Shown: positions 5,487 through 39,223, numbered from the stretch's first letter. The stretch is 41,479 nt of DNA from an uncultured virus (IMG/VR IMGVR_UViG_3300033148_003000) (IMGVR_UViG_3300033148_003000), one strand, 5' to 3'. Notes: generated by a model from the letters alone, not told the origin. Translations and numbers: made by a program.

Positions 5487-5527
5487 AAATTGTAATAAAT
5501 TAACACTCTGAGTTCATTTAGATAAAC

Positions 5528-6759: not shown

Positions 6760-6775
6760 TTCTCCTTTAGATAAA

Positions 6776-7303: not shown

Positions 7304-7373
7304 TTATTTAATCCTTTATTTTATTCTTTATTGTTAAAGAAATATGTAACCTGGATATGACTAAACTATATAT

Positions 7374-7724: not shown

Positions 7725-7967
7725 TTAATTATCCTCATATTCATTTAATATTTTAGTAAATAAACCTTTTAATGATGACCTTTCATTTAAACAAGCATCA
7801 ATATAATCATCAACTGCATAAGTAAAATCTCTTTCACAGTCTTTAATTGTTAAACCTTCATATAAACATAAATCTTCAATGTTAAGAATTTTACCCCAAT
7901 AACATTTGTCTTCTTTTGACCATTCTAATGATCCTGTATAGTTTTTGTGTTTTATCTCATTTTTCAT
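7725..7967 (-). CDS. hicB: HicB-family antitoxin (N-terminal domain only), no adjacent HicA
   Basis: MKNEIKHKNYTGSLEWSKEDKCYWGKILNIEDLCLYEGLT...FTYAVDDYIDAC matches the HicB pattern YKGY.GS.E.S.ED....G........Y.G...AVDDY. The likely start is the ATG at 7967. Confidence 0.8.
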   Translation of the reverse strand: MKNEIKHKNYTGSLEWSKEDKCYWGKILNIEDLCLYEGLTIKDCERDFTYAVDDYIDACLNERSSLKGLFTKILNEYEDN

Positions 7968-8448
7968 TAAAATTCTTCCTATAATTAGTTGTGTCAATGT
8001 TAACTCTTTCAAAAATATCAAATTTTATATCTGGATGAGTATTTTTCTTAATAATAAATATAATTAATGAATAGTCTTCTAATTTCCTTTGTAGATTAGG
8101 AGATAGGTTTTTAAAGTACTTATTATCAAGTTCTGTTAGTAGGCTTAAACTTTTAAGTTTAAACTTATTGTCCATAAAACTAAAGAAAGTATTGAGTCGT
8201 TGTTGTCCATCAACTACTTCATAAGTATTTTCTAAACTTTCTGAAAGATAAATTACAGGAATGGGAATACTTAACAAAATTGATTCTATTAATTTTGATT
8301 GTCTTGCCGGTAATTTAGACCAAATATCATTACGTTGATCCTCTGAACTTAATAGGATCTCATTATTTTTATATCTTCTATACAGTTCAAAAACTGAACG
8401 TTGAACTTTTTCAATATAAATATCTTTTGTTTCATTTTTTAAAACCAT
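7957..8448 (-). CDS. Stand-alone DUF262 (ParB/Srx-like, GmrS-type) domain protein
   Basis: QRNDIW, LIESILLSIPIP, EVVDGQQRL and DIFERVN motifs. Confidence 0.85.
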   Translation of the reverse strand: MVLKNETKDIYIEKVQRSVFELYRRYKNNEILLSSEDQRNDIWSKLPARQSKLIESILLSIPIPVIYLSESLENTYEVVDGQQRLNTFFSFMDNKFKLKSLSLLTELDNKYFKNLSPNLQRKLEDYSLIIFIIKKNTHPDIKFDIFERVNIDTTNYRKNFNEK

Positions 8449-8690
8449 AAAACTTCTCCTGTAAATCCTTTACGAGTTTTTAAATTACTAGAAAGAGATC
8501 TCACTTTTACACCATTTGAGAATTTTTCTTTTATCTTCTTTAACTTTTTATTTGGCTTCTTTATATTGGTGATAGTTTGTCTTGTGCATATAGGGCAATG
8601 ATTTCCCAAAATATTTTTATATTTTTTATTTTGACAAAATATATCCAATCTAAATACACTATTACAATAATCACAAAAATAAATTTTCAT
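8439..8690 (-). CDS. Zinc-ribbon hypothetical protein
   Basis: CDYC...CPIC. Confidence 0.55.
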   Translation of the reverse strand: MKIYFCDYCNSVFRLDIFCQNKKYKNILGNHCPICTRQTITNIKKPNKKLKKIKEKFSNGVKVRSLSSNLKTRKGFTGEVLWF

Positions 8691-9043
8691 TAAAACCTTT
8701 CCTTAATCATTGTATCTTCATCCATCTTAGTATAACCCAACTTTTTAAAGAAGTCAATATTTAAAACATGGTATATTAACAATTCTTTATAATTTTCAAA
8801 TACAGTTTCTTCCAAAATACTCATTAAATATTGTCCATAACCTTTGTTTCTATATTGTTTTAAAACTTCAATACTATACAACTTGTTTTCTTTAAACATA
8901 GCATATCCAAGTACTGTATTACCTTCATCAATTACTATCAAAAATTTGAAATCTTCTACAAAGTCTTTATTTAATTTAAATTTTTTAAGTATTTGTTTTA
9001 CTAAAGGAAATTTTCCTTTTAGTTCTAACATTGTACAATTCAT
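8690..9043 (-). CDS. GNAT-family acetyltransferase
   Basis: IEVLKQYRNKGYGQYLM (acetyl-CoA motif A) and FFKKLGY. Confidence 0.85.
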   Translation of the reverse strand: MNCTMLELKGKFPLVKQILKKFKLNKDFVEDFKFLIVIDEGNTVLGYAMFKENKLYSIEVLKQYRNKGYGQYLMSILEETVFENYKELLIYHVLNIDFFKKLGYTKMDEDTMIKERF

Positions 9044-9203
9044 TTAATTACCTTCGCTTATATGGTTCTAAATTTTAATATTGATGACCCAAATGGGGTC
9101 ACTTACAAAATAATGATTAATTTGGTACTAACATACCTATCATGATTTTAATGATTAATCTCGACTCTGTTAAGAACATTTCCGTGGATATTTACATTTA
9201 TCT

Positions 9204-9413
9204 CTAATTATTTTTATTAACGATTTTATCAACAATTTCTTGACAATGATTTTTGATCCTTATCAGGTCTTTCAAATCTAAATCTATTGCTATTTCTTTT
9301 ATCAACACTGTTTCTTGTTTGATATTGTTGTGAACCAAGTCTTCAAGAATTAAATAATCATCTTCTATAGTTAACACAGTTTGTTCGTTATCATTGTTTT
9401 TAATTATTTCCAT
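9204..9413 (-). CDS. Small hypothetical protein, paralog-like to 15678..15920
   Basis: KEIAIDLDLKDLIRIKNHCQEI versus KEICMKLDLKDIKKIRDYCNEI. Confidence 0.6.
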   Translation of the reverse strand: MEIIKNNDNEQTVLTIEDDYLILEDLVHNNIKQETVLIKEIAIDLDLKDLIRIKNHCQEIVDKIVNKNN

Positions 9414-9448
9414 TATTCGTCTATTTCTCCTTCTAATTTTCTTCTAAT

Positions 9449-10147
9449 TTATCTAAATACATCAAGAATACTGTGATGATAATCGTCAATTTTTCTTCTA
9501 TCACTAACTTTTTTCCATTTTTTATCTTCTTCATATGAATACAACATATCAGTTTCATCATCATAAAGACAATAATTTATATTATCATCTTTATAATTAT
9601 AACACTCGAATGTATGATTACATATATTATATTCTACAATTATATTTTTTTGTAAACATAAATATCTATGATATTTAGTATCTTTAATTTTTTGACAATA
9701 ATTATCTTCATCAACAACAAAATCTACTAATTGTAACCATGTATAATCTCTTTTTTGAATATAATTATAATCATGGGTACTTCCATTTTTATTCCTTATT
9801 TTATTTGTAAACAATTTTTGTAACAACTCACATGTTTTTAAGTATTCGCTACGTTTGCATTGACATTGTTCTTGAAATTGCACAACCAACTTCTGTATTT
9901 CATTTTTGGTTAATAACCTTTCATGAATTTCTTGTTGAGTTATACTAATTAATTCATTACATACAATAATATCAAAATATTCATAACTAGAAGCTAATTT
10001 TATATAATTATCATCAAGTTTAATTATCATTATACATTCATCTTTACGATTTTCTTCATAACGAACAAATTCCCAACCCAATTCTTTAGTAAATTCCTTT
10101 AAATTTTTATTTCTAAATGTTTCTTTAGATTTGTTAATATTACTCAT
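9449..10147 (-). CDS. Hypothetical protein, tandem paralog of 10144..10596
   Basis: Shared KYHR.L.L and YCLYD..TD.LY.YE.DKKW..V.DR. Confidence 0.7.
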   Translation of the reverse strand: MSNINKSKETFRNKNLKEFTKELGWEFVRYEENRKDECIMIIKLDDNYIKLASSYEYFDIIVCNELISITQQEIHERLLTKNEIQKLVVQFQEQCQCKRSEYLKTCELLQKLFTNKIRNKNGSTHDYNYIQKRDYTWLQLVDFVVDEDNYCQKIKDTKYHRYLCLQKNIIVEYNICNHTFECYNYKDDNINYCLYDDETDMLYSYEEDKKWKKVSDRRKIDDYHHSILDVFR

Positions 10148-10596
10148 TCACTTATCCAACCTTTCTTAACTAATCTATCATAAACCAACACCCATTTTTT
10201 ATCTTTTTCATATGTATATAAATTATCTGTTGAATTATCATATAAACAATAACATGTTGGATCATCATCGTTAATTGTTAAACACATAGTTCTACTTTCA
10301 ATAGAATTAAAAATCATAACACTATTTGTTAAAAGATTTAAAACTCTGTGGTATTTTCCACTATATAAGCCTTCTATAATTGGCACACCATTATAAGTAT
10401 CAAAAATAACACAATCAACTGATTGTTTCCAAACAAATTTATTTCCCATTACCATAGAAACTAAATGATCTTTATTCAGATTGATTTGATTCACATATAT
10501 TTCACATAATTGTTGATTGGCTTTTTGATTTATTTCCTTTTCTATGTTTTCATGTAATTGGTTTAATTCAACAATTAATTCACACATTTTTTTCAT
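10144..10596 (-). CDS. Hypothetical protein, tandem paralog of 9449..10147
   Basis: Same shared C-terminal motif. Confidence 0.7.
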   Translation of the reverse strand: MKKMCELIVELNQLHENIEKEINQKANQQLCEIYVNQINLNKDHLVSMVMGNKFVWKQSVDCVIFDTYNGVPIIEGLYSGKYHRVLNLLTNSVMIFNSIESRTMCLTINDDDPTCYCLYDNSTDNLYTYEKDKKWVLVYDRLVKKGWISE

Positions 10597-10634
10597 ATTT
10601 ATCTCTAGATATATTTATAGTCATTTTGTTCTCC

Positions 10635-11231
10635 TTAATACAGCGGTTTTACTATAACAGGAACCCAAGAATTAAATCCACGTCTTTTCAATATTTGTTC
10701 AAATACATCATGTCCTGGGGTTTTCAGTTTTTTTCTATTTAAAACTTGATCTATTTTGTAGTAATATTCATGTTTACAGTGATTATAATCACTGTTTGTC
10801 AAAGTGTCGGCTATTTCCCATTCTAATGATTTGTGTAATGTCGGATCGATATCTAACATTACCTCATTGGAAATATATCTAGCAAGTATTTCTTCATAAA
10901 GATAATTAGGTTTAATTCCGGCATTTCTACACAACAAATGAGTTAATTCATGTACCAAAAATTGACACATTAAACCGTGATCATTTTGTTTCACACATAT
11001 GTTATATTCCAGATCTTTATCTAAACAACAAAATCCCACCACAGTATTTTTACAAGAAGAATTATTGATACCAAATAACTTGTCGTAATATTTAAGTTCA
11101 TGTATTTTGTAGATAATAAAATTATATTGATAAGATCTGGTAGCATTTAAAACTCTTTTACCTAATTCTGATTGTCTCAAAGTTTTACACAATGATCTCA
11201 GAATTTTTAAATTTTCTTGTTTGTTATTCAT
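10635..11231 (-). CDS. Putative zinc metallopeptidase (HExxH; ImmA/IrrE/ArdC-like)
   Basis: FLVHELTHLL followed by EEILA. Confidence 0.6.
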   Translation of the reverse strand: MNNKQENLKILRSLCKTLRQSELGKRVLNATRSYQYNFIIYKIHELKYYDKLFGINNSSCKNTVVGFCCLDKDLEYNICVKQNDHGLMCQFLVHELTHLLCRNAGIKPNYLYEEILARYISNEVMLDIDPTLHKSLEWEIADTLTNSDYNHCKHEYYYKIDQVLNRKKLKTPGHDVFEQILKRRGFNSWVPVIVKPLY

Positions 11232-12506
11232 CTAATCCTCTAAATCATTTTTTTCTTTATTTTCTAAAGATACATCAATTTTAACAATAGGTGTTATAAC
11301 TATTTCAGATTTATCAATAATGATATTCTCTAACACATCTTTTAAAATTTCAGGATGTTCTGTAAATGTTTCTCCAACATCATTCAATATTACAGTATCT
11401 GATGGATCTAAATCTATTTCATTAATTGTAGTTTCTATCCTAATTCCTAGTTCTTCATCTTTAAACGGATCAAATGTTCCATCAATGATATTTCTGAAAT
11501 TGGGTCGTAATAATTCACTAGATAATTGGCCACATTTTTTATAAAACAAACCCTGTTCTCCTCCCAATTTTGAGAATTGGTTGGTAAAATCTTTAAGAAA
11601 GTCTTTCATTACATCTGTAGATAACTCCTTGATAATTTTTCTAAAATCTTTGTCTGTAATATCACCCATTTTAGATAAAACATTCACCAAACGGTTAGGT
11701 GTTACGTACTTTTCCATTTCCGTAACTAAATTGTGAAATTCAGGTGATAAATCTTCAAACTTACATTGTTTTTTTTCTTTATTCCTATTTCGAGAAACTT
11801 CTTTAAATTTTTCAGTTTTATTTTTAAGAATAACACGGGTCTTATTATGGAACCATTTAGGTTTATCAGGTTTGATTACAACTCCTTCAGCAAAGTTGTT
11901 GTCGATTTTTGGTAGATTGAATTGTTGATAAACCAACGACTCAAATAAAGGGTTATATTCTAAACATTCATCAAATGTTCCTCTAAACAGTATTGGTAAA
12001 TAAGGTATATCAAAAAGTTTACAATACATATCAAACTCTCTACCTGAAACAAACTCTTCATTAACCATGATATCAAATGCTAAAAATTGATTATCAGGTG
12101 AATACCAAACACCGTGTTGAATTTTCATGGCAGTTTTTATTGGTTCAACTTTTTCATGTTTATATTCACCACCACAATTTTCACCAAATATTCTAACAGT
12201 CACATGACCACTTTTCAATTCTTTGATTACATAATCGTATAAACAATTTATGGAAACTTCTAACTTATTTTTAAACACTAAAAATCCCCCGAAATTACTA
12301 TCCGGTGAAATTAAACCAGACCTTTTTCCCCATTGTATTCCTTCTGAGTCTTTTGAAATTTGCATATTCTGACCGTGTACCTTTTCTCTTACTTCCCAAA
12401 TACCTTGATCAAATTGACCTTCTCTAATATATTCAAGAGTTTGTTTTCTTTCAACATTTTCGATGTCATTATAACGTTTAAATTTCATCTCGTTCAATTC
12501 TTTCAC
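11232..12506 (-). CDS. rnl2: ATP-dependent RNA ligase, Rnl2 family
   Basis: Motif I EKVHGQN, IFGE..GG, FLAFDI, EGVVIKP and ILKNK, plus the Rnl2 C-domain (YVTPNRLVNVLSK). Confidence 0.9.
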   Translation of the reverse strand: MKELNEMKFKRYNDIENVERKQTLEYIREGQFDQGIWEVREKVHGQNMQISKDSEGIQWGKRSGLISPDSNFGGFLVFKNKLEVSINCLYDYVIKELKSGHVTVRIFGENCGGEYKHEKVEPIKTAMKIQHGVWYSPDNQFLAFDIMVNEEFVSGREFDMYCKLFDIPYLPILFRGTFDECLEYNPLFESLVYQQFNLPKIDNNFAEGVVIKPDKPKWFHNKTRVILKNKTEKFKEVSRNRNKEKKQCKFEDLSPEFHNLVTEMEKYVTPNRLVNVLSKMGDITDKDFRKIIKELSTDVMKDFLKDFTNQFSKLGGEQGLFYKKCGQLSSELLRPNFRNIIDGTFDPFKDEELGIRIETTINEIDLDPSDTVILNDVGETFTEHPEILKDVLENIIIDKSEIVITPIVKIDVSLENKEKNDLED

Positions 12507-12582
12507 TCGATGTCTCCTTTAGTTATTCTTCATTACTTTGTAATTTCATTTATTATAAATTATGGATTTAATTTACTTAATA

Positions 12583-12729
12583 TATAATATACTACATATT
12601 GACATCCTCACCTACAAGGTAATTCCTACTAAGTAGTTTCTATTTAAGCTACTCTTTCGGCGGGTTCCTGATTCATCGACTGACCAGTGTCACATTCTCC
12701 ACAGGCTATTACGGCATGCCCTGCCGCTA
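12583..12729 (-). ncRNA. TnpB omegaRNA (reRNA) scaffold plus flanking guide
   Basis: GCGGCAGGGCATGCCG..AGCCTGTGGAG...TCGATGAATCAGGAACCC...GTAGGAAT...GGATGTCAA is the typical IS605 right-end RNA. The adjacent guide would be TATGTAGTATATTATA. Boundaries are approximate. Confidence 0.65.
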
Positions 12730-12926
12730 ATTGTTATTAACCTTTACTTGTTAACACTTATTAATTTATAGACTTTATTATTTATGTTTAAATTATCTAT
12801 AACAATAGTTTGGTTATCACTTATTGTTTTAAACAATTTGGTAAGTAATCAAGTCTAACAATTTTGGTTTTTTCTTTCTTTCTTTCTTGTTTAGTTACTT
12901 ATCACCGTCCTTAAGGACGGAGTTTT
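12599..12926 (-). mobile_element. Non-autonomous IS200/IS605-family element (internally deleted tnpB)
   Basis: Minus strand: TTGAT target (12931-12927), then a left-end hairpin CCGTCCTTAAGGACGG and a TnpB-like fragment TISDNQTIVIDNLNI (about 12783-12830). The right end is ...GGAAT...GAGGATGTCAA. Confidence 0.8.
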
Positions 12927-13264
12927 ATCAATGATGATAAAATTGTTAATACTATAATAAATGTTGATATACATAACAATCCCACACATTGAAATATAAG
13001 TATAAATAATTCTAACATTTTATTTTATCATCGCCTTCATTAAATAATATAACCCAACACAAAAGAAAATAGTTATACTTATTAATATTGACATTCCTAA
13101 AATTGTTAAAATTGTTTCTATTATTAACATTTCATCTCCTTTTTTTATTTAAATCAATTGCTTGTAATAATATTACCCATATTATTCCCCAAATTATTGC
13201 AAATATCATTGTATTTTCTAAAATGATTAATAATAATTCGTTCATTTTATATCCTCATTTTATT

Positions 13265-13546
13265 TTAAAGAAAACTTTTTAATTTATCTAAAGATAATTT
13301 TCTCAAATTCTTTAAACCAAGTTGTTTAAGTTGACCAACTCTTGAAGAAGAAATTCCTAAATCATTTGCAATATCTGCATGAGTGTGTGACATACACATT
13401 AATAAAACTTCTCCCTGTTTACTAGTTAATGTTGTTAATAATTTTTCAACATTATCATTCAGTATTTCTTCATCTAATTTTTCATCTAAATCTTTCATGA
13501 ATTGACCATTATCTGATGAAGGATTCTCGTTAGATATGTTTATCAT
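13265..13546 (-). CDS. Stand-alone sigma70 region-4 HTH protein
   Basis: LTTLTSKQGEVL...THADIANDLGISSSRVGQLKQLGLKNLRK. Confidence 0.75.
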   Translation of the reverse strand: MINISNENPSSDNGQFMKDLDEKLDEEILNDNVEKLLTTLTSKQGEVLLMCMSHTHADIANDLGISSSRVGQLKQLGLKNLRKLSLDKLKSFL

Positions 13547-14343
13547 TTTTCTTTCTCCATTGTTAATTTCATTGTTGATTTCATTCTCCTATTAAGTGTA
13601 AAATTCCTAGAACGGTCATTACATTGTATATAATCTACCAAAACTGGTATGTATCCAGTGTTTTCTATCATTGATCGGTAGTAAACTGTTTTACCTTGTT
13701 GTATAATTGAATTTTCCAATCCATGTTGATGTCCATAAAGCACCACATTAAATTGATATTTTTCAATCAGTTGTTTAAGTCTTTTAGTTTCAGGTGGATA
13801 ATGTAAAACCAAAACCTTAACAAAATTTCCTAAATCATAAATTGAAGAAATAGCCTTCATTCTTTCTGAGAGTATTTTATAGTGAGATGTTCTGGTACGA
13901 TATTTTTGTGTATGTACAGATTCACATTTAGATCCCACAATAAAGAGATTTCTAATCGTATACCATGAATCATCTAAAGGTATAATTGTGAAGTAATCAC
14001 GTCTTAAATTACCAATGGTATACCATTGGTCATGATTACCTTTGATGATAAATTTCTTTCCTGGTAATCTTTCAATTTTATCCAAAACAATTTGAGCATC
14101 TTTGTAATTTTTACCCCAGACTGTATCACCACTTAGTATCACCAAATCATTTTGTCCAACAGTTGTTTTCCACAATTGTTGCCAATATTGTTGATATTCA
14201 TAACCTTTTCTTAAATGTTTTTCATCCATATAAATATGATTCAAAGGATGAAAATGACCATCACTGTAATGCCAAATTTTGATTTGTTGATTGGTCTCGA
14301 CTATCTTTGGATCTTTATTATTATTTTCTTTTTTATTATTCAT
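13543..14343 (-). CDS. Calcineurin-like metallophosphoesterase
   Basis: SDGH, SGD, KGNHD, LHYPP and YGHQH motifs. Confidence 0.85.
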   Translation of the reverse strand: MNNKKENNNKDPKIVETNQQIKIWHYSDGHFHPLNHIYMDEKHLRKGYEYQQYWQQLWKTTVGQNDLVILSGDTVWGKNYKDAQIVLDKIERLPGKKFIIKGNHDQWYTIGNLRRDYFTIIPLDDSWYTIRNLFIVGSKCESVHTQKYRTRTSHYKILSERMKAISSIYDLGNFVKVLVLHYPPETKRLKQLIEKYQFNVVLYGHQHGLENSIIQQGKTVYYRSMIENTGYIPVLVDYIQCNDRSRNFTLNRRMKSTMKLTMEKEK

Positions 14344-21356: not shown

Positions 21357-21929
21357 TTAATACTCTATTCCCCGTCTACTTTTAACATTTTTTCTAAAGT
21401 AGTGTTTCACATCTCTCATTTCTGTTACCAGATCTGCAATCTCGATGATTTCAGGAATTTCACTACGACCAGTTGTAATTATCTCAACATGTGAAGGTTT
21501 ATTTTTCAAGGTTTTAATTACATCTTCAATTGGTATTATTTCCATATCAACAATGATATGAAGTTCATCTAAAATAATCAGGTCGTAATAACCTCTTTGG
21601 ATTTCTTCTTTAGCAAATTCCCAACCATTTTCAATCACCTTGGTCATTCGAGAACTCAAATCTTTATGGTACAACACACGTTCAGGGCCAAACTGTTCAA
21701 CACGAAATTCAGACTTTTTTGTTCTTTTTTTGATTGTGTTAACTTCACCGTAGAAGTTGAGATCATCAGGATGAAGACCTTTTGTGTATAGAATCAATAA
21801 AACTTTCCAATTATGACCTAAAGCCCTGAAAGCAGTACCTATTGATGCAGAAGTTTTCGATTTACCTTTTCCGAAAAATACCTGAATATATCCCCTTTTT
21901 CCAAAATAAGGGTTGTGTGATTTTTCCAT
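21357..21929 (-). CDS. cobO: Cob(I)yrinic acid a,c-diamide / cob(I)alamin adenosyltransferase (CobA/CobO/BtuR)
   Basis: RGYIQVFFGKGKSKTSASIG..RALG, YDLIILDEL, ITTGR, ADLVTEMRDVKH and RRGIEY. Confidence 0.9.
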   Translation of the reverse strand: MEKSHNPYFGKRGYIQVFFGKGKSKTSASIGTAFRALGHNWKVLLILYTKGLHPDDLNFYGEVNTIKKRTKKSEFRVEQFGPERVLYHKDLSSRMTKVIENGWEFAKEEIQRGYYDLIILDELHIIVDMEIIPIEDVIKTLKNKPSHVEIITTGRSEIPEIIEIADLVTEMRDVKHYFRKNVKSRRGIEY

Positions 21930-25607: not shown

Positions 25608-26150
25608 TTATTTATACTCAACAACTACAACTTCCAACCCTCTAGTTTTCGCCTTTTCAATTGAGTCTTTGGTTCCTAGGCTTTCACCATCCCAAAATGC
25701 AATCAACAAATCAGAATTCATCACAATGTCAACATTTCTTTCAAAACCTGCACGAGGATTATATCGACCATTTTTGTTCCATTCAGGTTTAAAAATAAGT
25801 GTTGGAATCAGTCTTTCTTTAGCATATCTTTCACTCAAACTATCGGCACCCTTCGCTTTACCAGAAACAATAGCACCAATTTTATATTCGTCTAAAGTTT
25901 GTTTAAGTAATTTGTAATCTTTAAATCCACGACTACCAACCACACCTACCCTATCATATGTTTCAATATCTACATGATGACAAGATAAACCTAAGAAAAT
26001 TTGTGTCCATAACATTGTACCAACTTTTGGGTGATTAATTGTTTCTTTTGTTAATTCATTAAGAAATTTTATATATTCATTCCTAGTTTTAAACCTAATT
26101 CCACAATGATTTAACATTTCTTGTTGGTCTTTAAATACTTCAAATTGCAT
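25608..26150 (-). CDS. SLOG-superfamily (DUF2493/YspA-like) protein with an N-terminal extension
   Basis: VVGSRGF.DY, IVSGKAKGADSL, AGFERN and AFWDGESLGTKDSI. The likely start is MQFEV. Confidence 0.85.
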   Translation of the reverse strand: MQFEVFKDQQEMLNHCGIRFKTRNEYIKFLNELTKETINHPKVGTMLWTQIFLGLSCHHVDIETYDRVGVVGSRGFKDYKLLKQTLDEYKIGAIVSGKAKGADSLSERYAKERLIPTLIFKPEWNKNGRYNPRAGFERNVDIVMNSDLLIAFWDGESLGTKDSIEKAKTRGLEVVVVEYK

Positions 26151-26451
26151 TTGGTTTACCCATTTCTTCAAAAGTATCAACTAAATTTGATTCTATTATA
26201 TCAACATCAAAATCCATCTCAAGATCAACATCTAGATTATATTTATCTATAAAATCAAATTTAACTTTTCTTCTATCTTTCCATGGATAACTATCATACT
26301 CTTTCTTAAATGTTATAAAATCATTATATAATTTATCAACTTCGTCTTTAGAAGTAAAACATGTATTATTAATCATTACTTTATAAGACCATTCCCAATC
26401 ATATTGACAAAATTCAACATAATATATTTTAATTTTCATTTGTTTACTCAT
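26140..26451 (-). CDS. Hypothetical protein
   Basis: ORF track. Confidence 0.6.
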   Translation of the reverse strand: MSKQMKIKIYYVEFCQYDWEWSYKVMINNTCFTSKDEVDKLYNDFITFKKEYDSYPWKDRRKVKFDFIDKYNLDVDLEMDFDVDIIESNLVDTFEEMGKPNAI

Positions 26452-27376: not shown

Positions 27377-27829
27377 TTAATTTTTATTAATGTCTTCACA
27401 CACTAACCTGGATCTAACTAACATCAAAATCTGACCTAACTTATTTAACCCTTTTCCAGTTTTCCCCGAACCCCAATAATTATCCCATGGTGAGTTTTCA
27501 ATTATGTGTGAAGTTTCAGTGTATTTCAATTTTTGTGCTAATAAAGGATTTTGTTTAAATTTCTCGTAAACTCCTTGATACATTACATAGTCTTTAATAA
27601 CATCAAAGATTTCTCTCATGGGTAATTGTTTACCTAATCTTCGTGCATCAGAAGCCAAACTACATTGCAGAACCTGTTTTTGATGTTCTTTTTTAACAAA
27701 TTTTTTTGATTGATAAAAATGCTCGACAGTTTTGTATATGAAGCCATCTACTTTAAACTTTGCAAAATAAAAATTTGACAAATAACCATAAGATGGATCT
27801 TTACAACCTTTAAATTTAAGTTCTTTCAT
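27377..27829 (-). CDS. NADAR (YbiA-like) family protein
   Basis: LSNFY, TVEHFYQSKKF, KFKQNP, IIENSPWDNYWG and GLNKLGQILMLVR. Confidence 0.9.
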   Translation of the reverse strand: MKELKFKGCKDPSYGYLSNFYFAKFKVDGFIYKTVEHFYQSKKFVKKEHQKQVLQCSLASDARRLGKQLPMREIFDVIKDYVMYQGVYEKFKQNPLLAQKLKYTETSHIIENSPWDNYWGSGKTGKGLNKLGQILMLVRSRLVCEDINKN

Positions 27830-30685: not shown

Positions 30686-31189
30686 TCACGAATTTCTTCT
30701 GCATTTTTTTTTGAGTAATTGATTAAAATCATCATCAAGATATCTATGATCTATCATTACAACATCTTCACTTATATCATTTATTTCTTTAGCTAATCTC
30801 TCAATAATAAAATCATCTTTAAAATCACCATATTGAATTGTTTTACAACCATTATTTTTGATAAGATTGGTAACAGCATTTAAACTATGTATAGACGATT
30901 TTGAAAAATATAAACCTTCCCAACTGTTAAATACTACAAATAATAATTTTTCTGGGTTCTTATTTGAAACTTCAACAGCTTCTGCGATGGAAAATACGCC
31001 TTTCATTTGTGGTGTTATCACAATCAACACTAAATCACAAGAAATCTTTTCTCTTTCTTCATTTATTTTAGCTTCATCATTCCAATCTTTCACGACCGGA
31101 TCAAAATAATCAGTAACTAATAAAGGTTTTAATTTATCTCTCCAATTCGTTTCGGAACATGTTCCACCTAAAAATACTTTAAATCCCAT
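30686..31189 (-). CDS. Nucleoside 2-deoxyribosyltransferase-like protein
   Basis: KVFLGGTC...WRD...YFDPVVKDW...E..CD...VITPQMKGVFSIAEAV. Confidence 0.8.
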   Translation of the reverse strand: MGFKVFLGGTCSETNWRDKLKPLLVTDYFDPVVKDWNDEAKINEEREKISCDLVLIVITPQMKGVFSIAEAVEVSNKNPEKLLFVVFNSWEGLYFSKSSIHSLNAVTNLIKNNGCKTIQYGDFKDDFIIERLAKEINDISEDVVMIDHRYLDDDFNQLLKKKCRRNS

Positions 31190-31494: not shown

Positions 31495-31686
31495 TTATAA
31501 CCCCTTGTATATTAATTCATCTATATTATATTTGTGAATTTCAAATCCTTCAGGGTCATAATTTTCTTGTTGAATATAAGCATTAAGATAACTTTCAGCA
31601 ATTAAATCCGTACTAAAAATTCCTAAAATACTTTGTCGTCCTGAAATACAATATTGTAAAATCACATAAATTTCATTATTATTCAT
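31495..31686 (-). CDS. Small phage-type protein (vY.v...lGiFSt.e.Ae family)
   Basis: IYVI...ILGIFSTDLIAESY, similar to 37599..37961. Confidence 0.6.
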   Translation of the reverse strand: MNNNEIYVILQYCISGRQSILGIFSTDLIAESYLNAYIQQENYDPEGFEIHKYNIDELIYKGL

Positions 31687-32288
31687 TTATATTTCCTTTA
31701 AGCCTTTCTTAAAAAAATCATACCAAACATACCTGTTTCCATATCGATATGGACTTAAAGCGTTGTAATAACTTTGTCGATTTTCATAGAAATATCGAGA
31801 CATAAACAACGGTTTTAAACCATTTCTCACGCATATTAGGGGAATCAATAACCGACCTAATCGACCATTTCCATCTACAAAAGGTGAATCATTTCAAAAT
31901 CGGCATGTAAATTACCCACAACTTCATAACCATAAAATTTACTCGCAGTTAAATATACATAGAATTTTAAAAATTCTTGTGGTAAAATTCTACAATCAGT
32001 GGTGGGATTTCCACCTACATTAACATCAACTTGTCTTAATTTACCACCCTTTGCAAGATCAGGAAATAAATATTGATGGATTTCTTGTATCGCAAAATAC
32101 CAATTTTCACTTTGGCTTGATTGATAATCTGTTGATTCTAAATTACAACACAATACTCCATCTTTAATCCATTTAGCTAATTTGTTATAAATATCGATTG
32201 GGTATTATAACTCATTGTAATTTAATGACAACCCTTCTATTTGCCAACTATGTGCAAATTCTTCAATTAATACATCTTTATTCACCAT
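31687..32288 (-). pseudogene. fic: Fic-domain protein, interrupted by a nonsense codon and a frameshift
   Basis: GGAGG-ATG at 32288, an in-frame TAA at 32205-32207, then IQEIHQYLF..GGKLRQVDV...LHADFEMIH. Restoring one C at about 31884 gives HPFVDGNGRLGRLL...RQSYYNAL...WYDFF*. Confidence 0.85.
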
Positions 32289-33366
32289 TTAATTCCTCCA
32301 ACATTTCTTCTATTGAATATGGTAATTTTTCGATAAATTTCTTTAAAATATTATACTTTTTAAACAACTTGTCATATTCTTTACCTGAAAATACCCGTTT
32401 GCCTAATTCTTCTTCAGCTTGATCGATTATTTTATCAAATTCTTTATTTTGATCAACTTTTTCTTTAAATTTTTCTTCATTTTCAACTAAAAAGTTTACA
32501 AGTTCAACTTCTTCTGGATCGAAATTATTTATATCTTCTTCGTCATCAATTACAAATTCAACTTCTATTTCGCTTTCACTAATTGGATCTGTATTACCAA
32601 CAAAATCATCAAGTAAAGTTAATGTATCATTTTCTTTTTTATTTTGAACAACTTCGTTGTCATTCTGATCAAGTTTATCATTCTTTGTCTTTTCTTCTAA
32701 TCTTTTTGTAATCTTTTTCATCACATCACCATGTTCAAGTCTATAATATCTACCAGTCCATCCACAGTCTTCACAATTATAAACCCGCATTCCGTCTGAT
32801 ACCCAACCATGTCCTTTACAAGTTTGACATTTCATCCAAGGTGAATAAAACCCACCACAACAGTATGTACAATAATCGACTTCTTTCCAACCTGCTTCAA
32901 TCAATTTTTGGTTTGTTTCTAATATTATTTGTAACTGTCTTTCACAATCGCAATGTATACACAAATCCTCATATGAGTCTTTTGTAATTACTTTTTGTAT
33001 TTCTTCCCATTTTCTCAAATTTTCTTCAATGTTTTCTTTAGACCATGACTGACTAAATTTAGTGTTAGGTCTGGATATTCTTTGTAAACTAAAATAATGA
33101 AAATTATTTATACTATTATTATATTTAACATATTGACAATTAATTTGGTATTTATTCCATAACCATAAATAAATATTTTCTTTAAAATCAATAGATAATA
33201 TCTCTATGTTATTTAAAGTTATCGAGTAAATACATTCACCATCGATGTAATTATGTCCATTGTATGTGTTTATATTTTCACTAATTAGTTCTTTCCATTT
33301 TTTTAATAATATTTGTTCTTGCATTTTAAATTCCTTTTTCATTACTTCGTAGTGGATCTTTATCAA
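32278..33366 (-). CDS. Hypothetical protein with a zinc finger and acidic C-terminus
   Basis: CTYCCGG, CQTCKGHG and CEDCGWTG. Confidence 0.65.
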   Translation of the reverse strand: MIKIHYEVMKKEFKMQEQILLKKWKELISENINTYNGHNYIDGECIYSITLNNIEILSIDFKENIYLWLWNKYQINCQYVKYNNSINNFHYFSLQRISRPNTKFSQSWSKENIEENLRKWEEIQKVITKDSYEDLCIHCDCERQLQIILETNQKLIEAGWKEVDYCTYCCGGFYSPWMKCQTCKGHGWVSDGMRVYNCEDCGWTGRYYRLEHGDVMKKITKRLEEKTKNDKLDQNDNEVVQNKKENDTLTLLDDFVGNTDPISESEIEVEFVIDDEEDINNFDPEEVELVNFLVENEEKFKEKVDQNKEFDKIIDQAEEELGKRVFSGKEYDKLFKKYNILKKFIEKLPYSIEEMLEELNGE

Positions 33367-33941: not shown

Positions 33942-34250
33942 TTATATTACCTCAAAATAAATAATTGTACAATAGGTTTCATCTGTAATATCAGGATAAA
34001 TATCTTTTAATACTTTTTTTAAAAATAATAAAGACATTCCTTCTTGTTCTGCAATATAAACATTTAATTCTGAAAATTTTAAATATTCAATATTTTTTAC
34101 TAATACTGTAATTTCTTTTTTATTATCCAATCCTTCAAACATTAAAATAGGTGTATCTTTAATATATCTTATACCTTTTCTAACAGTAACAGTTTTAATA
34201 CCATCTTCAACCATTTTTAAAAAATTATCTTGTAATAATAATTTATTCAT
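33942..34250 (-). CDS. ASCH (PUA-like) domain protein
   Basis: GIKTVTVRKG...FSEL...AEQEG...LKDIYP. Confidence 0.8.
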   Translation of the reverse strand: MNKLLLQDNFLKMVEDGIKTVTVRKGIRYIKDTPILMFEGLDNKKEITVLVKNIEYLKFSELNVYIAEQEGMSLLFLKKVLKDIYPDITDETYCTIIYFEVI

Positions 34251-34262: not shown

Positions 34263-35417
34263 CTAATCATTATAAACCAACCGACCATTAACAAATGTTT
34301 TTTCAACTTTTCCAAGAACTTCTTCACCATCAAATGGTGTATTTTTACCTTTTGAAACAAATTCTTCTTTGTCTATAACCCATTCTCGATTAGGATCAAA
34401 TACTACAATATCAGCAATTGAACCACAAGATAAATCGCCTATCATGGATGTTCTCAATATTGTTGCAGGATTAGAAGTAAACCATGAAACCAATTGTAAT
34501 GGTTCAACATCTTTAAATAGTGAATATACTAAAGAAAATGCGGTTTCAAATCCTGATACACCTGGAAATCTCTCCGATTCATGAGGTGCATGATCTGTTA
34601 CTACACAATCAACCAATCCTTTAATCAACTCGTTTCTTAAACTATTATAGTCTTCATAAGTATTAGATACAGGTTTAACTTTCCAATTATATTCAATAGG
34701 ATATAAATGATGAGGTGTAACATCGCAAGTAATATTTAATCCTTCTTCTTTTCCTTGATATATTAACTCTAAAGAACCTTTTTTTGATATATGAGTAAAA
34801 TGTAAATTAATATTATAAGGATTTGATCTTAATAGTTCTATTTCTTGTGCTATCTTTGAAGATTCATCAACATTACATGTATGAGATATAATAACTTTTT
34901 GATCTTGAAGTTTAAACAAATTTTGTTTCAATTGTTTACAAGGTGTATCACATCCATCATTAGAATATCCAACACATAAATCTTTTAAATAAACTTCACT
35001 CATAGGTGTGTGTTGTTTCAAACCTTGAGTAAATGGGCCAATAACGTGAACACGACATTGTGCATGTTTGTTAATTAGATATTTGTAGTATTTTAACACC
35101 AACGAGTTGTCTAAACAAGGTTTAGTATTAGGCATACAACACACAGTTGTATATCCTCCTTTGACTGCTGCAAGGGTTTCGGTCTTGATTGTTCCCTTTT
35201 TCCATTCGAACATGTCCCTTAAATGACAATGTAAATCAACAAATCCAGGTAATACCCATTTATCATCACAGTATACCTCATTTAGTGATTTTAAATTATC
35301 ACCTATTTCACTTATTCGACCATTTTCTACACGAATATCTGTTATCTTATCCAATCCACTTCCAGGGTCTATTATCCTACCATATTTTAAAACAAAACTG
35401 TTTAGTTTATTATTCAT
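34263..35417 (-). CDS. pyrC: Dihydroorotase (class I)
   Basis: PGFVDLHCHLR, AAVKGGYTTVCCMPNTKP, CDVTPHHL, TDHAPH, PGVSGFET and SKGKNTPF. Confidence 0.92.
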   Translation of the reverse strand: MNNKLNSFVLKYGRIIDPGSGLDKITDIRVENGRISEIGDNLKSLNEVYCDDKWVLPGFVDLHCHLRDMFEWKKGTIKTETLAAVKGGYTTVCCMPNTKPCLDNSLVLKYYKYLINKHAQCRVHVIGPFTQGLKQHTPMSEVYLKDLCVGYSNDGCDTPCKQLKQNLFKLQDQKVIISHTCNVDESSKIAQEIELLRSNPYNINLHFTHISKKGSLELIYQGKEEGLNITCDVTPHHLYPIEYNWKVKPVSNTYEDYNSLRNELIKGLVDCVVTDHAPHESERFPGVSGFETAFSLVYSLFKDVEPLQLVSWFTSNPATILRTSMIGDLSCGSIADIVVFDPNREWVIDKEEFVSKGKNTPFDGEEVLGKVEKTFVNGRLVYND

Positions 35418-35883
35418 GTGAAATATCCACCTTCATAAATGACACAATATCTTTCAGTTGTGAACGATCTACCACGCAACCAACACCAACTACTTCTCCA
35501 CCTTGATCTTCAATTATTTTTTTGGTTTGATCAACTGTTCCACCTGTCGTTATCACATCTTCAATAATAATGTATCTCTTTTGAGTAACCTTAAACGATC
35601 TTTTCATAACCATTTGACCGTTAACTTTTTCAACAAATAAAAAATGTTTACCCATTTTTTTAGCAACTTCATATCCAAAAATTGTTGCACCCAATGCAGG
35701 ACTAACTACAACATCAAAGTTTTTGGGTATTTTTTTTACCAGTTCTGTAACCACTTCATCAACTAAATAAGGTGATTTCAACAATTGTGAACAGTCATAA
35801 AATGTGTTGGTTTTTGAACCATTGGTTAAAACGAAATTACCTTTTTGTTTAATCAATTGTATCACAAATTCTTTACTTAACAT
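35410..35883 (-). CDS. pyrE: Orotate phosphoribosyltransferase
   Basis: GNFVLTNG, PALG and the PRPP motif IIIEDVITTGGT, plus VDRS. Confidence 0.9.
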   Translation of the reverse strand: MLSKEFVIQLIKQKGNFVLTNGSKTNTFYDCSQLLKSPYLVDEVVTELVKKIPKNFDVVVSPALGATIFGYEVAKKMGKHFLFVEKVNGQMVMKRSFKVTQKRYIIIEDVITTGGTVDQTKKIIEDQGGEVVGVGCVVDRSQLKDIVSFMKVDISHE

Positions 35884-36644
35884 TTTTTTGTAATTTCCAT
35901 AATTTCTTTTTTTAAACTAATTATTATTTTATCATTTACAAAATTAAATATATCTTTTATATATATTTTCATTTTAATTAAATTATATGGTATTTCTTCA
36001 CTTTTTCCAAATATTTCAATAGCATATATTTTAGTATAAGTTTCATACCCATTATAAGATATTGTTGAATAATTCCTACAAAATTTAAGTTCACATTTAT
36101 ATTTTGTACCAACTTTATATTTAGAATGTAATATTTTACATTCATAGGATTCTATATATTTACCATTATCATCTTCTAAAATATTACAAATATTAGATAA
36201 TTCTTTTATCTTTTCTTCTTCATTCATTTCTAACCAATTTTTTCCTATATTTTCTACATAATATGGAAATTTATATTTAAATTCTTTTATAAAATTAGAT
36301 GACATATGTTGTTTATCTATAATTAAAATCCAATGAATTTTATCTTGAAATTCTCTCATGAAATTTTCAGATAATATTTGGCTTACTGAAACCCAATACC
36401 AATCTATTTCATTTTGAAATTCTCTCATGAAATTTTCAGATAATAATTGAAAATTTGAAATATAAGGCCATATAATATAATCTTGAAATTCTCTTATAAA
36501 ATCTTCAGGTAATATAAAATATTTTGATATAATTACCCAATCTACATTTTTATAAAAATAAATTTGTTCTTTTTTTGTTTTGATTTGAAAATTATTTATA
36601 AAATTTTCTATTTCCTTGTTTGTAAATACTTTATCTGTAAACAT
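35877..36644 (-). CDS. Tryptophan-repeat protein
   Basis: 23-aa repeats W..IS....L.E.F.REFQ..I, with a near-identical 32-nt DNA duplication at 36345 and 36414. Confidence 0.75.
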   Translation of the reverse strand: MFTDKVFTNKEIENFINNFQIKTKKEQIYFYKNVDWVIISKYFILPEDFIREFQDYIIWPYISNFQLLSENFMREFQNEIDWYWVSVSQILSENFMREFQDKIHWILIIDKQHMSSNFIKEFKYKFPYYVENIGKNWLEMNEEEKIKELSNICNILEDDNGKYIESYECKILHSKYKVGTKYKCELKFCRNYSTISYNGYETYTKIYAIEIFGKSEEIPYNLIKMKIYIKDIFNFVNDKIIISLKKEIMEITKKC

Positions 36645-36653
36645 TTTATCTCC

Positions 36654-37562
36654 TTAATTTAATAACCATTCAAAGATTCCCACTCTTACAGGAACACTAT
36701 TTTCAACTTGTTTCAAAATCAATGACAATTTTTGATCATCAACCAAATCAGATGTAATTTCTTTTCCTCTGTTTACTGGTCCTGGATGCATTATCTTAGC
36801 TTCAGGACAGTATTTCTCAACTAATTCCCTGGTTAATTTATATGCGTGTTCTTCGCTTACACCTTTAATGATGTCTTTTATTGATGATTGTTTTATGTCA
36901 TATCGTTCGATTTGATCTCTCAAACACATTACAATATTGGCATTTTTTATACCATCAATCAATTTTGTATGTGATGTAAACGGACAATTGTGTATTTCTT
37001 TAGGTAATAGTTCAACTGGACCAACTAAATGTAAATCAATACCATATTTAGTCAAAAGTTTAACATTGGATCGTGCAACTCTTGAATGTAACACATCACC
37101 AATAATTATAACTTTTTCCAACTTTTCAATTTCTTTCATCATTGTATAATAATCTATCAATGCCTGAGATGGATGTTCATCACAACCATTTCCTGCGTTA
37201 ACAAAGTGAACTTGATGACCAAATTTCTTCACCAATTCTTTAACTAAATTTTCTCTTTGATGTCTGATTACCAAAACATTTATACCCATTGTAACCAAAT
37301 TTGCAACAGTATCAAATACTGTTTCACCTTTAACTTCTGCGGAAGTATCGAGATTAAGATTGATTACATTGTAACCCAATAACTTCGCTGCTAACTCAAA
37401 ACTACATCTTGTACGTGTAGAATTTTCATAAAATAATAATCCAACATTTACATGATTTAAACGAAAATTATGATTACATTCATGATTAAATATTTTATCA
37501 ATATCACTTGTTGATAATTTATCTATCGATATTAGATGTTTCAATCCTTTTTGTGTAGTCAT
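36654..37562 (-). CDS. pyrB: Aspartate carbamoyltransferase catalytic subunit
   Basis: FYENSTRTRCSFE, KGET, IRH, NAG...HPSQAL, GDVLHSRVARS, R.Q.ER and MHPGPVNRG. Confidence 0.95.
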   Translation of the reverse strand: MTTQKGLKHLISIDKLSTSDIDKIFNHECNHNFRLNHVNVGLLFYENSTRTRCSFELAAKLLGYNVINLNLDTSAEVKGETVFDTVANLVTMGINVLVIRHQRENLVKELVKKFGHQVHFVNAGNGCDEHPSQALIDYYTMMKEIEKLEKVIIIGDVLHSRVARSNVKLLTKYGIDLHLVGPVELLPKEIHNCPFTSHTKLIDGIKNANIVMCLRDQIERYDIKQSSIKDIIKGVSEEHAYKLTRELVEKYCPEAKIMHPGPVNRGKEITSDLVDDQKLSLILKQVENSVPVRVGIFEWLLN

Positions 37563-37598
37563 CTTGTTTACTCCTATTAATTATTCTATCGACACATT

Positions 37599-37961
37599 TT
37601 ATCCTTCTTGATTCTTAAAAATTAAAAAATCATTAGAAACAACACTATTGTCTTTTAATACAAAAGAATTATCTGAGTTAATTATTTGTATTTGATCTTT
37701 TACATAAAATGATCCTTCAGATAGATTAGGTTTTTCAACAATAACCTTATTACCCTTTTTGAGAATTTCACCAAAATAATCTGTACCATAATATTCAACC
37801 AAATCGTCTATTTTCATTTTAACAATATCGTAATAACGAGAATCATGTTGTTGATTAATATAATTTTCACCTTTTTCTTTAGTTGAAAAAATACCTACTG
37901 TATTTTTTACATCATATGAACCACTCATAATAAATCTAACTGCATAAACTTCCATTTTCAA
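37599..37961 (-). CDS. Phage-type hypothetical protein
   Basis: VYAV...VGIFSTKEKGENY. Confidence 0.6.
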   Translation of the reverse strand: MKMEVYAVRFIMSGSYDVKNTVGIFSTKEKGENYINQQHDSRYYDIVKMKIDDLVEYYGTDYFGEILKKGNKVIVEKPNLSEGSFYVKDQIQIINSDNSFVLKDNSVVSNDFLIFKNQEG

Positions 37962-37978
37962 ACAACCTTTCTTTATAA

Positions 37979-38458
37979 TTACTCACCAATTTTAAAACAC
38001 TCTTTCATTTGTATTTCTTTATCATATATTTTCCAACATTCACTTTTCTTAACCCATCTTGGGCATTGACTAATATAACCACATAAAGGAAGTGAACTTA
38101 CACACATTATTTTATATATAGATGTATTTCGATCTTGTCCAGTCCAATAAAAAGGACAATATAAATCTTTAATAGGTTTAGGTTGTACACCATTTAACCA
38201 TTCTTCATAAGTACAACCACCTTCCGAAAATTTAATATCGTTGGTATTTTTACTTGATTGACAATAACCACAACCTTTAAATACTCTGTCTATATTTTCT
38301 CGTTTTACTAATTTTGTGAAATTTTGATATTGATAATTTATAAACCCTTCACCATCACATCTAGAACACACGACAGCACAATTATCTTTTTCACCCATTC
38401 CTTTATATAATCCAGTTCCTTCACAAGAAGTGCATAATATTTTCATTGTTTTAATCAT
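37979..38458 (-). CDS. Hypothetical protein with DnaJ-type zinc finger
   Basis: CTSCEGTGLY...VVCSRCDGEG. Confidence 0.7.
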   Translation of the reverse strand: MIKTMKILCTSCEGTGLYKGMGEKDNCAVVCSRCDGEGFINYQYQNFTKLVKRENIDRVFKGCGYCQSSKNTNDIKFSEGGCTYEEWLNGVQPKPIKDLYCPFYWTGQDRNTSIYKIMCVSSLPLCGYISQCPRWVKKSECWKIYDKEIQMKECFKIGE

Positions 38459-38473
38459 TTTATTTTACCTTTC

Positions 38474-39223
38474 TTATAAACTTTCAACTAACCACGGATT
38501 GATTAACATAACTGAACCAACACCACATTCTTTAACACCTAATTGTTCAAGTCTTTTCAAATCATCTGTTGAAACCCAACTTGATCCTGATAATGTCACC
38601 CCGTTCTTTTCTAAGTCCTCTAAATGGTCTTTTACGAATTGCCAATTTCTTTTTTGTGCTAACTTACCACTTACACCACCACCATATTTAGGCACTGAGT
38701 TTAACCTCACACCCTTCACACGAGACAAGTTGTAATCATTTGGGTCTTGGTTCCATCTCAATTTTAAATACAAAGAAAGGTCGCTCACAGGAATTAAATT
38801 ATTTTGGGGATCTTTTATATTAGGACAACTAAAATTCAGTTCCAAACCTTTAATATTTATTAAGTTCTCATAACTTAAATAATTCAAGTAACTGATCATG
38901 TGATTAATTTCACTATCGGTTCCGGCTAAAGAAACGACCAAATGATTGGTTTCAATACCATTCAATTTATACCACTCTAATTTTTTATATAACCATATAA
39001 ATCCTTTGTTGTGTAATTGTACTTGATTCCAAGTGGACTTTGTTATTAAAGGATCAACTAAAATTCTGTAAGGTGTTCCAACTTTTTTGTTGATTGTAAC
39101 TGTTTTAGTTACAGTTTCAAATTTAGAAAATTTGAAAAATTTATGCCAAGAATATCCTTGACCTAAATTACTCATTGTTGAACTCTGATAAAAAAACTTC
39201 ATCTTGTTAATCCTTTTAAACAT
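38474..39223 (-). CDS. pyrD: Dihydroorotate dehydrogenase (class 1-like, short and divergent)
   Basis: KTVT, N...L.N.G, VSLAG, ELNFSCPN (catalytic Cys), LKL, GGGVSG and VGS...NP. Confidence 0.8.
   Translation of the reverse strand: MFKRINKMKFFYQSSTMSNLGQGYSWHKFFKFSKFETVTKTVTINKKVGTPYRILVDPLITKSTWNQVQLHNKGFIWLYKKLEWYKLNGIETNHLVVSLAGTDSEINHMISYLNYLSYENLINIKGLELNFSCPNIKDPQNNLIPVSDLSLYLKLRWNQDPNDYNLSRVKGVRLNSVPKYGGGVSGKLAQKRNWQFVKDHLEDLEKNGVTLSGSSWVSTDDLKRLEQLGVKECGVGSVMLINPWLVESL

Follow-up and report, generated by a model that had tools for sequence, protein, structure and literature searches.

Many huge phages carry genes for the de novo synthesis of purines and pyrimidines (Al-Shayeb et al. 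2020, PMC7162821). Among the rows listed in Supplementary Table 5A of that work, aspartate carbamoyltransferase (ATCase) appears 4 times, dihydroorotase (DHOase) 2 times, orotate phosphoribosyltransferase (OPRT) 19 times, dihydroorotate dehydrogenase (DHOD) once, and orotidine 5′-monophosphate (OMP) decarboxylase 3 times. In these same rows, no genome has more than two pyrimidine steps, and just one pair looks clustered, a DHOase and an OPRT lying three genes apart. Here, we describe a stretch of 41,479 nucleotides from an uncultured virus (IMG/VR IMGVR_UViG_3300033148_003000), hereafter called the window, in which the minus strand carries pyrD, pyrB, pyrE, and pyrC between positions 34263 and 39223, tightly packed with three phage-type open reading frames (ORFs). 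We consider it fairly likely that the window holds a phage auxiliary pyrimidine pathway leading from carbamoyl phosphate and aspartate to OMP, with the enzymatic activities, expression, and benefit to the phage that we infer below.

PyrB (36654-37562, minus strand) is, judging from its sequence, a normal ATCase catalytic chain of the Bacillus type, with an ordinary length of 302 aa. It scores over both curated NCBIfam cut-offs (NF002032, 284.3 bits for a cut-off of 263; TIGR00670, 238.5 bits for 236.95), and the ornithine carbamoyltransferase (OTCase) models reach at most 107 bits on it, versus cut-offs of 281 to 306. Its best solved relative is the Bacillus subtilis ATCase (2at2, 4e-50), and it also matches the Aquifex ATCase chain (6.4e-39). 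The catalytic columns STRTR, KGE, RH, HPxQ, HSRVARS, LRxQxER, and HPGP are invariant and shared with 11 homologues; we take STRTR, R-H, HPxQ, HSRVARS, LRxQxER, and HPxP to be the carbamoyl-phosphate/aspartate motifs of ATCases, OTCases having HCLP. In a quick IQ-TREE analysis of 69 rows, taken from 30 of at least 80 genome loci, 34 of 119 database matches, and 4 of 12 IMG/VR loci, PyrB stands on a long branch (0.86) within a 97%-supported set that contains Bacillus, Paenibacillus, and unnamed sequences. Among the matches listed, those of highest identity to PyrB (45 to 47%) and to PyrE (47%) include metagenome-assembled genomes (MAGs) of Melainabacteria and Cyanobacteria. Because of the long PyrB branch and the skewed composition, we claim no donor for the pyr genes.

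PyrE (35410-35883, minus strand, 157 aa) appears from its motifs and family matches to be a short OPRT of the Thermus type (TIGR01367). Its best solved match is the OPRT 4paw (3.2e-24), with adenine phosphoribosyltransferase as the next family (3.9e-8). Aligned to 4paw, it shows an acidic-TTGG motif and an N-terminal G-x-F-x-L-x-x-G segment, presumably the motifs by which OPRTs bind phosphoribosyl pyrophosphate (PRPP) and orotate, respectively. The nearest homologues are 44 to 48% identical and mostly 186 to 205 aa long.

PyrC (34263-35417, minus strand, 384 aa) is a bacterial type-I DHOase stripped of the loop that docks ATCase. Its 18 top NCBIfam rows name dihydroorotase without exception, and eight bacterial type-I DHOases of solved structure match at an E value of 1e-34 or lower, the best being that of Aquifex (3.9e-62). 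Among 5.8 billion cluster representatives, the nearest are 34 to 39% identical, and all those listed are 419 to 483 aa long. PyrC keeps the metal ligands H63, H65, H179, H209, and D275, the bridging D154-G155 pair, and the substrate residues R67, N97, and H279; in 24 homologues, these columns are invariant and hold the same residues, G155 being near-invariant (at least 90%) and likewise shared. PMC9771888 lists nine metal and substrate residues as invariant, all of which PyrC has, with Gly following the bridging Asp in type I. In the alignment with the 24 homologues, 25 residues are gone after residue 180, just past His179 of strand 5. The segment that follows strand 5, loop 5, is described in the same source as alike in all bacterial type-I DHOases and as touching ATCase in the Aquifex complex; human DHOase is described there as lacking it, and the substrate contacts near the NPPLR region as made by the main chain.

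The preliminary description of this DNA had reported KVKPVS in place of an NPPLR-type motif, and the alignment bears this out: PyrC reads KPVSN for NPPLR, with V, S, and N at positions where the homologues have P (24/24), L (23/24), and R (23/24). In the AlphaFold model of PyrC (predicted local distance difference test score [pLDDT] 81.3), the strand at 175-179 leads into the helix at 185-198 with about 5 residues between them. The modelled fold is a triosephosphate isomerase (TIM) barrel with an adjacent β-sandwich domain, and Foldseek ranks 1 to 11 are DHOases of Aquifex, Bacillus anthracis, and Staphylococcus aureus (query TM-score [TMq] 0.84 to 0.92). Taken together, sequence and model suggest that PyrC is probably active as a dihydroorotase. 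A complex prediction for PyrB and PyrC gave a score of 0.00, which bears neither for nor against such a complex.

PyrD (38474-39223, minus strand, 249 aa) can be placed, on sequence and predicted structure, in a phage-specific family of class-1 DHODs of about 230 to 250 residues, called mini-PyrD below. Its start is probably residue 8 (Met8; 38474-39202, 242 aa), since the codon overlaps the stop of the upstream ORF in an ATGA, AAGGA lies upstream of it, and both the homologues and the Atlas record start there. When 1.84 billion representatives were searched exhaustively, 92 relatives emerged at an E value of 1e-3 or lower, 21 of them at 1e-30 or lower, most of the full-length ones having 221 to 280 aa. 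An alignment of 24 members has 16 invariant columns, including K40, N66, N72, S132-C133-x-N135, K154, and N175, as well as G182 and G186 (24/24 in each case); they comprise the Lys of VTKT, the asparagines of N..L.N.G, the catalytic Cys of SCPN, the strand-5 Lys, and the strand-6 Asn. A phmmer comparison of PyrD with DHOD-B gave 9e-5 over residues 20-138 only, and the family profile matched the Lactococcus DHOD-B PyrD at 6.5e-21 across 220 of 234 positions. The Pfam model DHO_dh (PF01180) was passed by five of seven PyrD relatives (28.4 to 38.3 bits), a sixth reaching 26.4 bits and the seventh giving no match at an E value of 1e-5 or lower. All the barrel strands are modelled in the AlphaFold prediction (pLDDT 92.4), and class-1 DHODs alone stand among the Foldseek matches listed (ranks to 50; TMq 0.64 to 0.73). 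The nearest ESM Atlas clusters have 225 to 235 aa, carry PF01180, and are 97 to 100% viral; the family has no match in INPHARED or in the PHROGs. A scan of metagenomes with the mini-PyrD alignment returned, among the matches listed, only distant and mostly partial DHODs of at most 35% identity.

The neighbors of mini-PyrD in other phages point to its role. We compared nine IMG/VR records of 26 to 253 kb that carry relatives at 38 to 47% identity. In one of them, L004 (252,876 bp, ended by direct terminal repeats and rated 100% complete), pyrE, mini-pyrD, and pyrF are adjacent in that order (9369-11474), and in another, L007, the same three genes lie within 8.4 kb (4439-12832). This linkage supports a pathway role, as a DHOD, for mini-PyrD. 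Over the set, OMP decarboxylase is present in three of the nine records (two above the cut-off and one truncated where the contig ends) and a phosphoribosyltransferase (PRTase) in three above the cut-off, plus a weak match in one more; neither ATCase nor DHOase is found in any of the nine. Six of these records are rated at most 53% complete, and absences there carry little weight. The window also encodes a nucleoside 2-deoxyribosyltransferase-like protein at 30686-31189. In L007, the position directly upstream of pyrE is taken by a homologue with 43% identity to it, an arrangement suggesting that this gene is recurrently linked with pyrimidine genes.

The organization of the block agrees closely with the preliminary description, which had placed the four pyr genes, co-oriented, within 5 kb: both coordinates and gene calls were right, and the compactness noted for PyrC (384 aa), PyrE (157 aa), and PyrD (249 aa) is borne out. 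In the direction of transcription, pyrD is followed by a gene for a Cys-rich protein of 159 aa (37979-38458) with two CxxCxGxG zinc-finger motifs of the DnaJ type, read directly from the sequence, and with weak matches to Anti-TRAP (E value 0.008) and phrog_8027 (2e-4). Next come a DUF7336-like small protein (37599-37961; Pfam 24.5 bits for a cut-off of 25), a second copy of which is found at 31495-31686 (27.8 bits), then pyrB and a Trp-repeat family protein (35877-36644; phrog_3532 at 2e-22, repeats read directly), and finally pyrE and pyrC. The Trp-repeat protein and the DnaJ-type finger are thus real and interleaved with the pyr genes, as had been claimed. Gaps in the block measure 9 to 36 nt, the Trp-repeat gene overlaps pyrE by 7 nt and pyrE overlaps pyrC by 8 nt, and most starts are preceded by Shine-Dalgarno (SD)-like motifs. 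An ASCH-domain protein is encoded 12 nt downstream of pyrC (33942-34250; Pfam ASCH 42.4 bits, above the cut-off) and has a weak likeness to N4-acetylcytidine amidohydrolase (NF003443, 41.6 bits for a cut-off of 93); from its position, it may be tied to the pyrimidine route, perhaps acting on pyrimidine nucleosides.

Upstream of pyrD on the same strand, four small ORFs are preceded by genes for tRNA-Leu (TAG), tRNA-His (GTG), and tRNA-Ser (GCT) at 40404-40140 (ARAGORN; Rfam tRNA scores of 49 to 63 bits). Further upstream lie a 121-aa ORF and a candidate promoter, TTGACA-17-TATAAT, at 40857-40829. The consensus promoter and tRNAs reported upstream of the pyr genes are therefore present, with a 12/12 consensus match; across the region, promoter-like sites are about as numerous as in shuffled sequence (77 found versus 75.7 expected). 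An Rfam scan of the window returned the tRNAs only, and neither a PyrR attenuator nor another RNA element.

On good but indirect evidence, the setting is very probably that of a phage. The window has a G+C content of 25.5%, minus-strand ORFs of at least 50 aa fill 85% of it, and a single coding strand runs across 41 kb along with the tRNA cluster. Roughly one in two of the larger ORFs belongs to no family, and the rest are typical phage accessory genes; PHROG and Pfam matches include an Rnl2-type RNA ligase, a metallophosphoesterase, an endolysin-type glucosaminidase, an NADAR/gp30.3-like protein, GmrSD_N, HNH, and sigma region-4. Scanning of 84 window ORFs revealed no cellular housekeeping gene. 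When the Trp-repeat family was searched against INPHARED by tblastn, it was found in only seven records, each of them a large Bacillus, Listeria, or Clostridium phage. The G+C content at third codon positions (GC3) of pyrB, pyrC, and pyrE (0.156 to 0.209) is within one standard deviation of that of 43 other ORFs (0.160 ± 0.050), pyrD being higher at 0.28; this match between the three genes and their neighbors speaks against both a chimera and a recent capture. These features, with the viral mini-DHOD clusters, support the phage-like genome proposed in the preliminary description, and the source is probably a large, very AT-rich tailed phage with a low-GC Gram-positive host. The PyrB protein is encoded on a contig of 165,479 bp. 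Near-identical DNA turned up neither among phages nor among 72,556 plasmids when segments of the window of 24.9 kb and 25 kb were compared by Megablast, and a 41-mer of pyrB had no exact match in the metagenome and genome contig collections. Scans of IMG/VR likewise yielded no close relative of the window, whichever of PyrB, PyrC, and the RNA ligase served as query.

Other genes of the window deserve mention in their own right. A T4 Rnl2-type RNA ligase (11232-12506), whose nearest phage counterparts are about 32% identical ligases of Aeromonas and Vibrio T4-like phages, has a metallophosphoesterase gene two genes upstream (13543-14343), and the two may form an RNA repair pair. NAD- and ADP-ribose-related genes, which have been reported for gut jumbo phages, are scattered along the window: an isochorismatase/nicotinamidase-like gene (4646-5242), a SLOG (YAcAr) gene (25608-26180), and an NADAR gene (27377-27829). 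A full-length ATP:corrinoid adenosyltransferase (CobA/CobO/BtuR, E value 2e-50) is encoded at 21357-21929; a cofactor gene of this kind is unusual in phage-like DNA. An ORF of 163 aa (7957-8448) matches GmrSD-type restriction enzymes in their N-terminal domain alone (phrog_2598, 5e-39), being either truncated or a stand-alone form, and the adjacent ORFs at 9449-10147 and 10144-10596 are paralogous, with 39% identity over 98 aa. An Atlas search with the 362-aa ORF at 32278-33366 gave no usable match.

In the reading that we favor, the pyrimidine module would sit in an early-type, one-strand gene block of a large phage. PyrB would couple host carbamoyl phosphate with aspartate, PyrC would close the ring to give dihydroorotate, the miniature class-1 PyrD, dependent on flavin mononucleotide (FMN), would oxidize dihydroorotate to orotate, and PyrE would use PRPP to form OMP. 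OMP decarboxylase and carbamoyl phosphate would be supplied by the host or by other parts of the phage genome. With the pyr genes packed for coupled translation and read off phage promoters, the supply of precursors of uridine 5′-monophosphate (UMP) during infection would be independent of transcription of the host pyr operon. Such a module may pay off where infection leads the host to repress its pyr operons or where pools run low; in Lactococcus, PMC10986495 reports that host pyr operons are severely down-regulated within 5 minutes of phage infection. Since carbamoyl phosphate and the OMP decarboxylase step come from elsewhere, escape from host feedback control would be at most partial. Bacillus-type ATCases are not known to have a regulatory subunit, and what the phage would gain is therefore freedom from the shut-down of transcription, not from allostery. 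We advance more tentatively, as a possible but doubtful extension, that a lineage of large AT-rich phages has evolved a miniaturized, host-independent orotate/OMP factory, in which a loop-5-free DHOase acts alone and a 242-residue, PyrK-free, virus-only DHOD uses a different electron acceptor than the class-1B enzymes.

A number of observations weigh against the proposed pathway. Three of the enzymes fall short of curated models: PyrE scores 131.1 bits (3.5e-38) with TIGR01367, under the cut-off of 150.25, covering model positions 14-146 of 187; PyrD scores 22.4 bits with PF01180 for a gathering threshold of 27, and 30.7 bits with NF005574 for a cut-off of 269; and PyrC reaches 255.7 bits with TIGR00857 for a cut-off of 279.05, its score being split into two stretches by the deletion. 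Structural elements are missing as well. PyrE stops about 30 to 35 residues before the C-terminal end of its homologues, mini-PyrD is without about 60 residues (the helix past the Cys loop, the helix past strand 5, and the hairpin past strand 6), and the 25 residues deleted from PyrC include seven positions conserved in 23 or 24 of the 24 homologues, from which PyrC differs at about 25 further conserved columns, NPPLR included; its model is weak at 246-249 and 283-286. As to the genes that would complete the route, no OMP decarboxylase, carbamoyl phosphate synthetase (CPSase), PyrI, PyrK, or PyrR family was found among the 84 minus-strand ORFs of at least 60 aa, in line with the absence of carAB, pyrF, pyrK, pyrI, and pyrR from the window first noted by eye, and tblastn with two phage pyrF proteins gave no match in the window. 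The PyrK Fe-S domain PF10418 was found in none of the five related phage records searched, of which one is complete. Among the nine records with a mini-PyrD relative, six are without a detected pyrF and five without any PRTase match; most of these records are fragments, but one rated 96% complete has only a cut pyrF piece. Lastly, family scans found no capsid, portal, or terminase gene in the 41.5-kb window.

These observations invite other explanations. The preliminary description had left room for a variant product of the divergent PyrC and PyrD, and in its broader form this idea holds that the trimmed PyrC and PyrD, perhaps with PyrE, have shifted to another substrate, making a noncanonical pyrimidine, such as a modified-base precursor, or working in the degradative direction. 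Of the columns conserved at 90% or more among the 24 homologues, PyrC does depart from 36, which include the whole of loop 5 and NPPLR; in several phage records, the virus-only PyrD family has neither pyrE nor pyrF with it; and both the ASCH protein and the nucleoside deoxyribosyltransferase-like protein, whose homologue adjoins pyrE in L007, are encoded nearby. However, all the residues that touch the metal, the FMN, and the pyrimidine ring in the canonical enzymes are kept. According to PMC9771888, the substrate contacts near the NPPLR region are of the main chain, and loop 5, absent from human DHOase, serves ATCase docking and not chemistry. Moreover, PyrB is an ordinary ATCase above its cut-offs, and the two phages in which mini-PyrD is linked to pyrE and pyrF are in keeping with the canonical route. 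With the catalytic, metal-, and substrate-binding residues of PyrC and PyrD canonical, the variant product thus finds little support, and we regard a shifted substrate as improbable.

Whether the genes belong to a phage at all, and whether they still work, must be weighed on the same evidence. The contig could instead be a plasmid or other mobile element, a small AT-rich cellular genome, or a phage-bacterial chimera, its pyr genes being ordinary cellular ones. The lack of a viral hallmark gene in the window would fit this, as would the lack of a close relative in IMG/VR for the PyrB, PyrC, and RNA ligase queries and the fact that many of the "phage" records with pyrB or pyrC are unannotated multicontig sets, some named as bacterial contigs. 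Yet none of the 84 ORFs is a housekeeping gene, about half of the larger ones being family-less and the rest typical phage accessory genes, INPHARED has the Trp-repeat family in large phages only, and the clusters nearest to mini-PyrD are viral. GC3 is uniform between the pyr genes and their neighbors (pyrD, 0.28), the pyr genes alternate with phage-type ORFs and overlap by 7 or 8 nt, and the 72,556 plasmids hold no near-identical DNA; a nonphage origin is accordingly very unlikely in our judgment. Alternatively, the genes might be decaying passengers, captured from a host and whittled down until no working pathway is left. Three of the four proteins, PyrB being the exception, are shorter than all their close homologues and below curated cut-offs, and pyrF was not found in the window. 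Against this, all four frames are open with catalytic residues intact, the genes are fully phage-adapted in codon composition, and they overlap and have SD-like motifs upstream. The trimmed form of PyrD is kept across at least 21 clusters (E value of 1e-30 or lower) with 16 invariant columns, and this conservation indicates purifying selection rather than decay; we hold decaying passengers to be very unlikely as well.

We return to the auxiliary pathway and to how rare such a gene set is. Searching 50,697 INPHARED records by tblastn gave matches to PyrB in 24 records, to PyrC in 31, to PyrE in one, and to PyrD in none. Most of the records matching PyrB or PyrC are unannotated multicontig sets or are named as bacterial contigs, including two named as Salmonella enterica contigs of about 501 kb, and such matches are not proof of phage carriage; one match, an ATCase of 28% identity, comes from an uncultured phage of 595 kb. 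In IMG/VR, where our scans were pattern-limited and not exhaustive, 58 loci with a DHOD pattern and 12 with an ATCase pattern were inspected, and at least three of the four pyr genes lie within 10 kb in L039 only. In this fragment of a giant-virus MAG (10001-14253), DHOD-, ATCase-, and DHOase-like matches fall side by side within 4.3 kb, the first on one strand and the others on the opposite one; it may be a giant-virus bin with three pyrimidine steps, or it may be eukaryotic or cellular DNA. We found no report of a phage pyrB/pyrC/pyrD/pyrE cluster in the literature, and the corresponding terms are absent from the jumbo-phage reviews and surveys examined. The expectation that a near-complete route would be rare therefore stands: no bona fide phage in INPHARED has a comparable set, nor do any of the nine mini-DHOD records carry pyrB or pyrC.

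Four consecutive steps of de novo pyrimidine synthesis in one 5-kb block push the known limit of phage metabolic autonomy, and the block is a specific possible way for a phage around the shut-down of host pyr operons. If the miniature factory outlined above were real, the phage could replicate in cells that shut down, or lack, pyrimidine synthesis. The trimmed enzymes, mini-DHOD and the loop-5-free DHOase, are natural minimal versions that can help in asking what the missing parts do, and they are possibly compact parts for pathway engineering.

Among the described systems, the DHOase-ATCase complex of Aquifex aeolicus (3d6n, 4bjh) provides the best match of PyrC in both sequence and fold (3d6n_A, TMq 0.92). 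PyrC resembles the Aquifex and other bacterial type-I DHOases in its bridging Asp-Gly, its short loop 4, and its large β-sandwich domain; unlike the Aquifex enzyme, which depends on ATCase, it is without the ATCase-contacting loop 5 and has KPVSN in place of NPPLR. Likewise, DHOD-A (1dor) and the DHOD-B PyrD (1ep1) of Lactococcus lactis share with mini-PyrD the strands of the barrel as modelled, the SCPN Cys loop, and the Lys and Asn residues of the FMN/orotate site. Solved class-1 DHODs have 306 to 354 residues, whereas the mini-PyrD of the window is about 60 residues shorter, and their phosphate loop, GxGG, reads AGCS with an invariant Ser in the mini-PyrD family. While class-1B DHODs have PyrK as an electron-transfer subunit, none was found with mini-PyrD in the window or in the related records searched. 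In contrast to the cellular class-1 DHODs, the mini-PyrD family is almost wholly viral.

L004 and L007 are like the window in having the same mini-DHOD family (40% identity) near an OPRT. They encode the last three steps, from dihydroorotate to UMP, with pyrB and pyrC nowhere in the record, whereas the window has the earlier steps and no pyrF was seen in it; the phage of the window thus differs from the mini-PyrD relatives by adding two earlier steps, pyrB and pyrC. With the huge phages of PMC7162821, as far as that survey lists them, the window shares auxiliary genes for nucleotide synthesis, and it differs from the rows listed there in having four consecutive steps within 5 kb and a DHOD of the miniature phage type. 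Single genes for nucleotide synthesis are known from phages, and to such auxiliary genes this locus adds a fuller pyrimidine set, a type-I DHOase that has lost loop 5, and a virus-only mini-DHOD that other large phages carry together with pyrE and pyrF.

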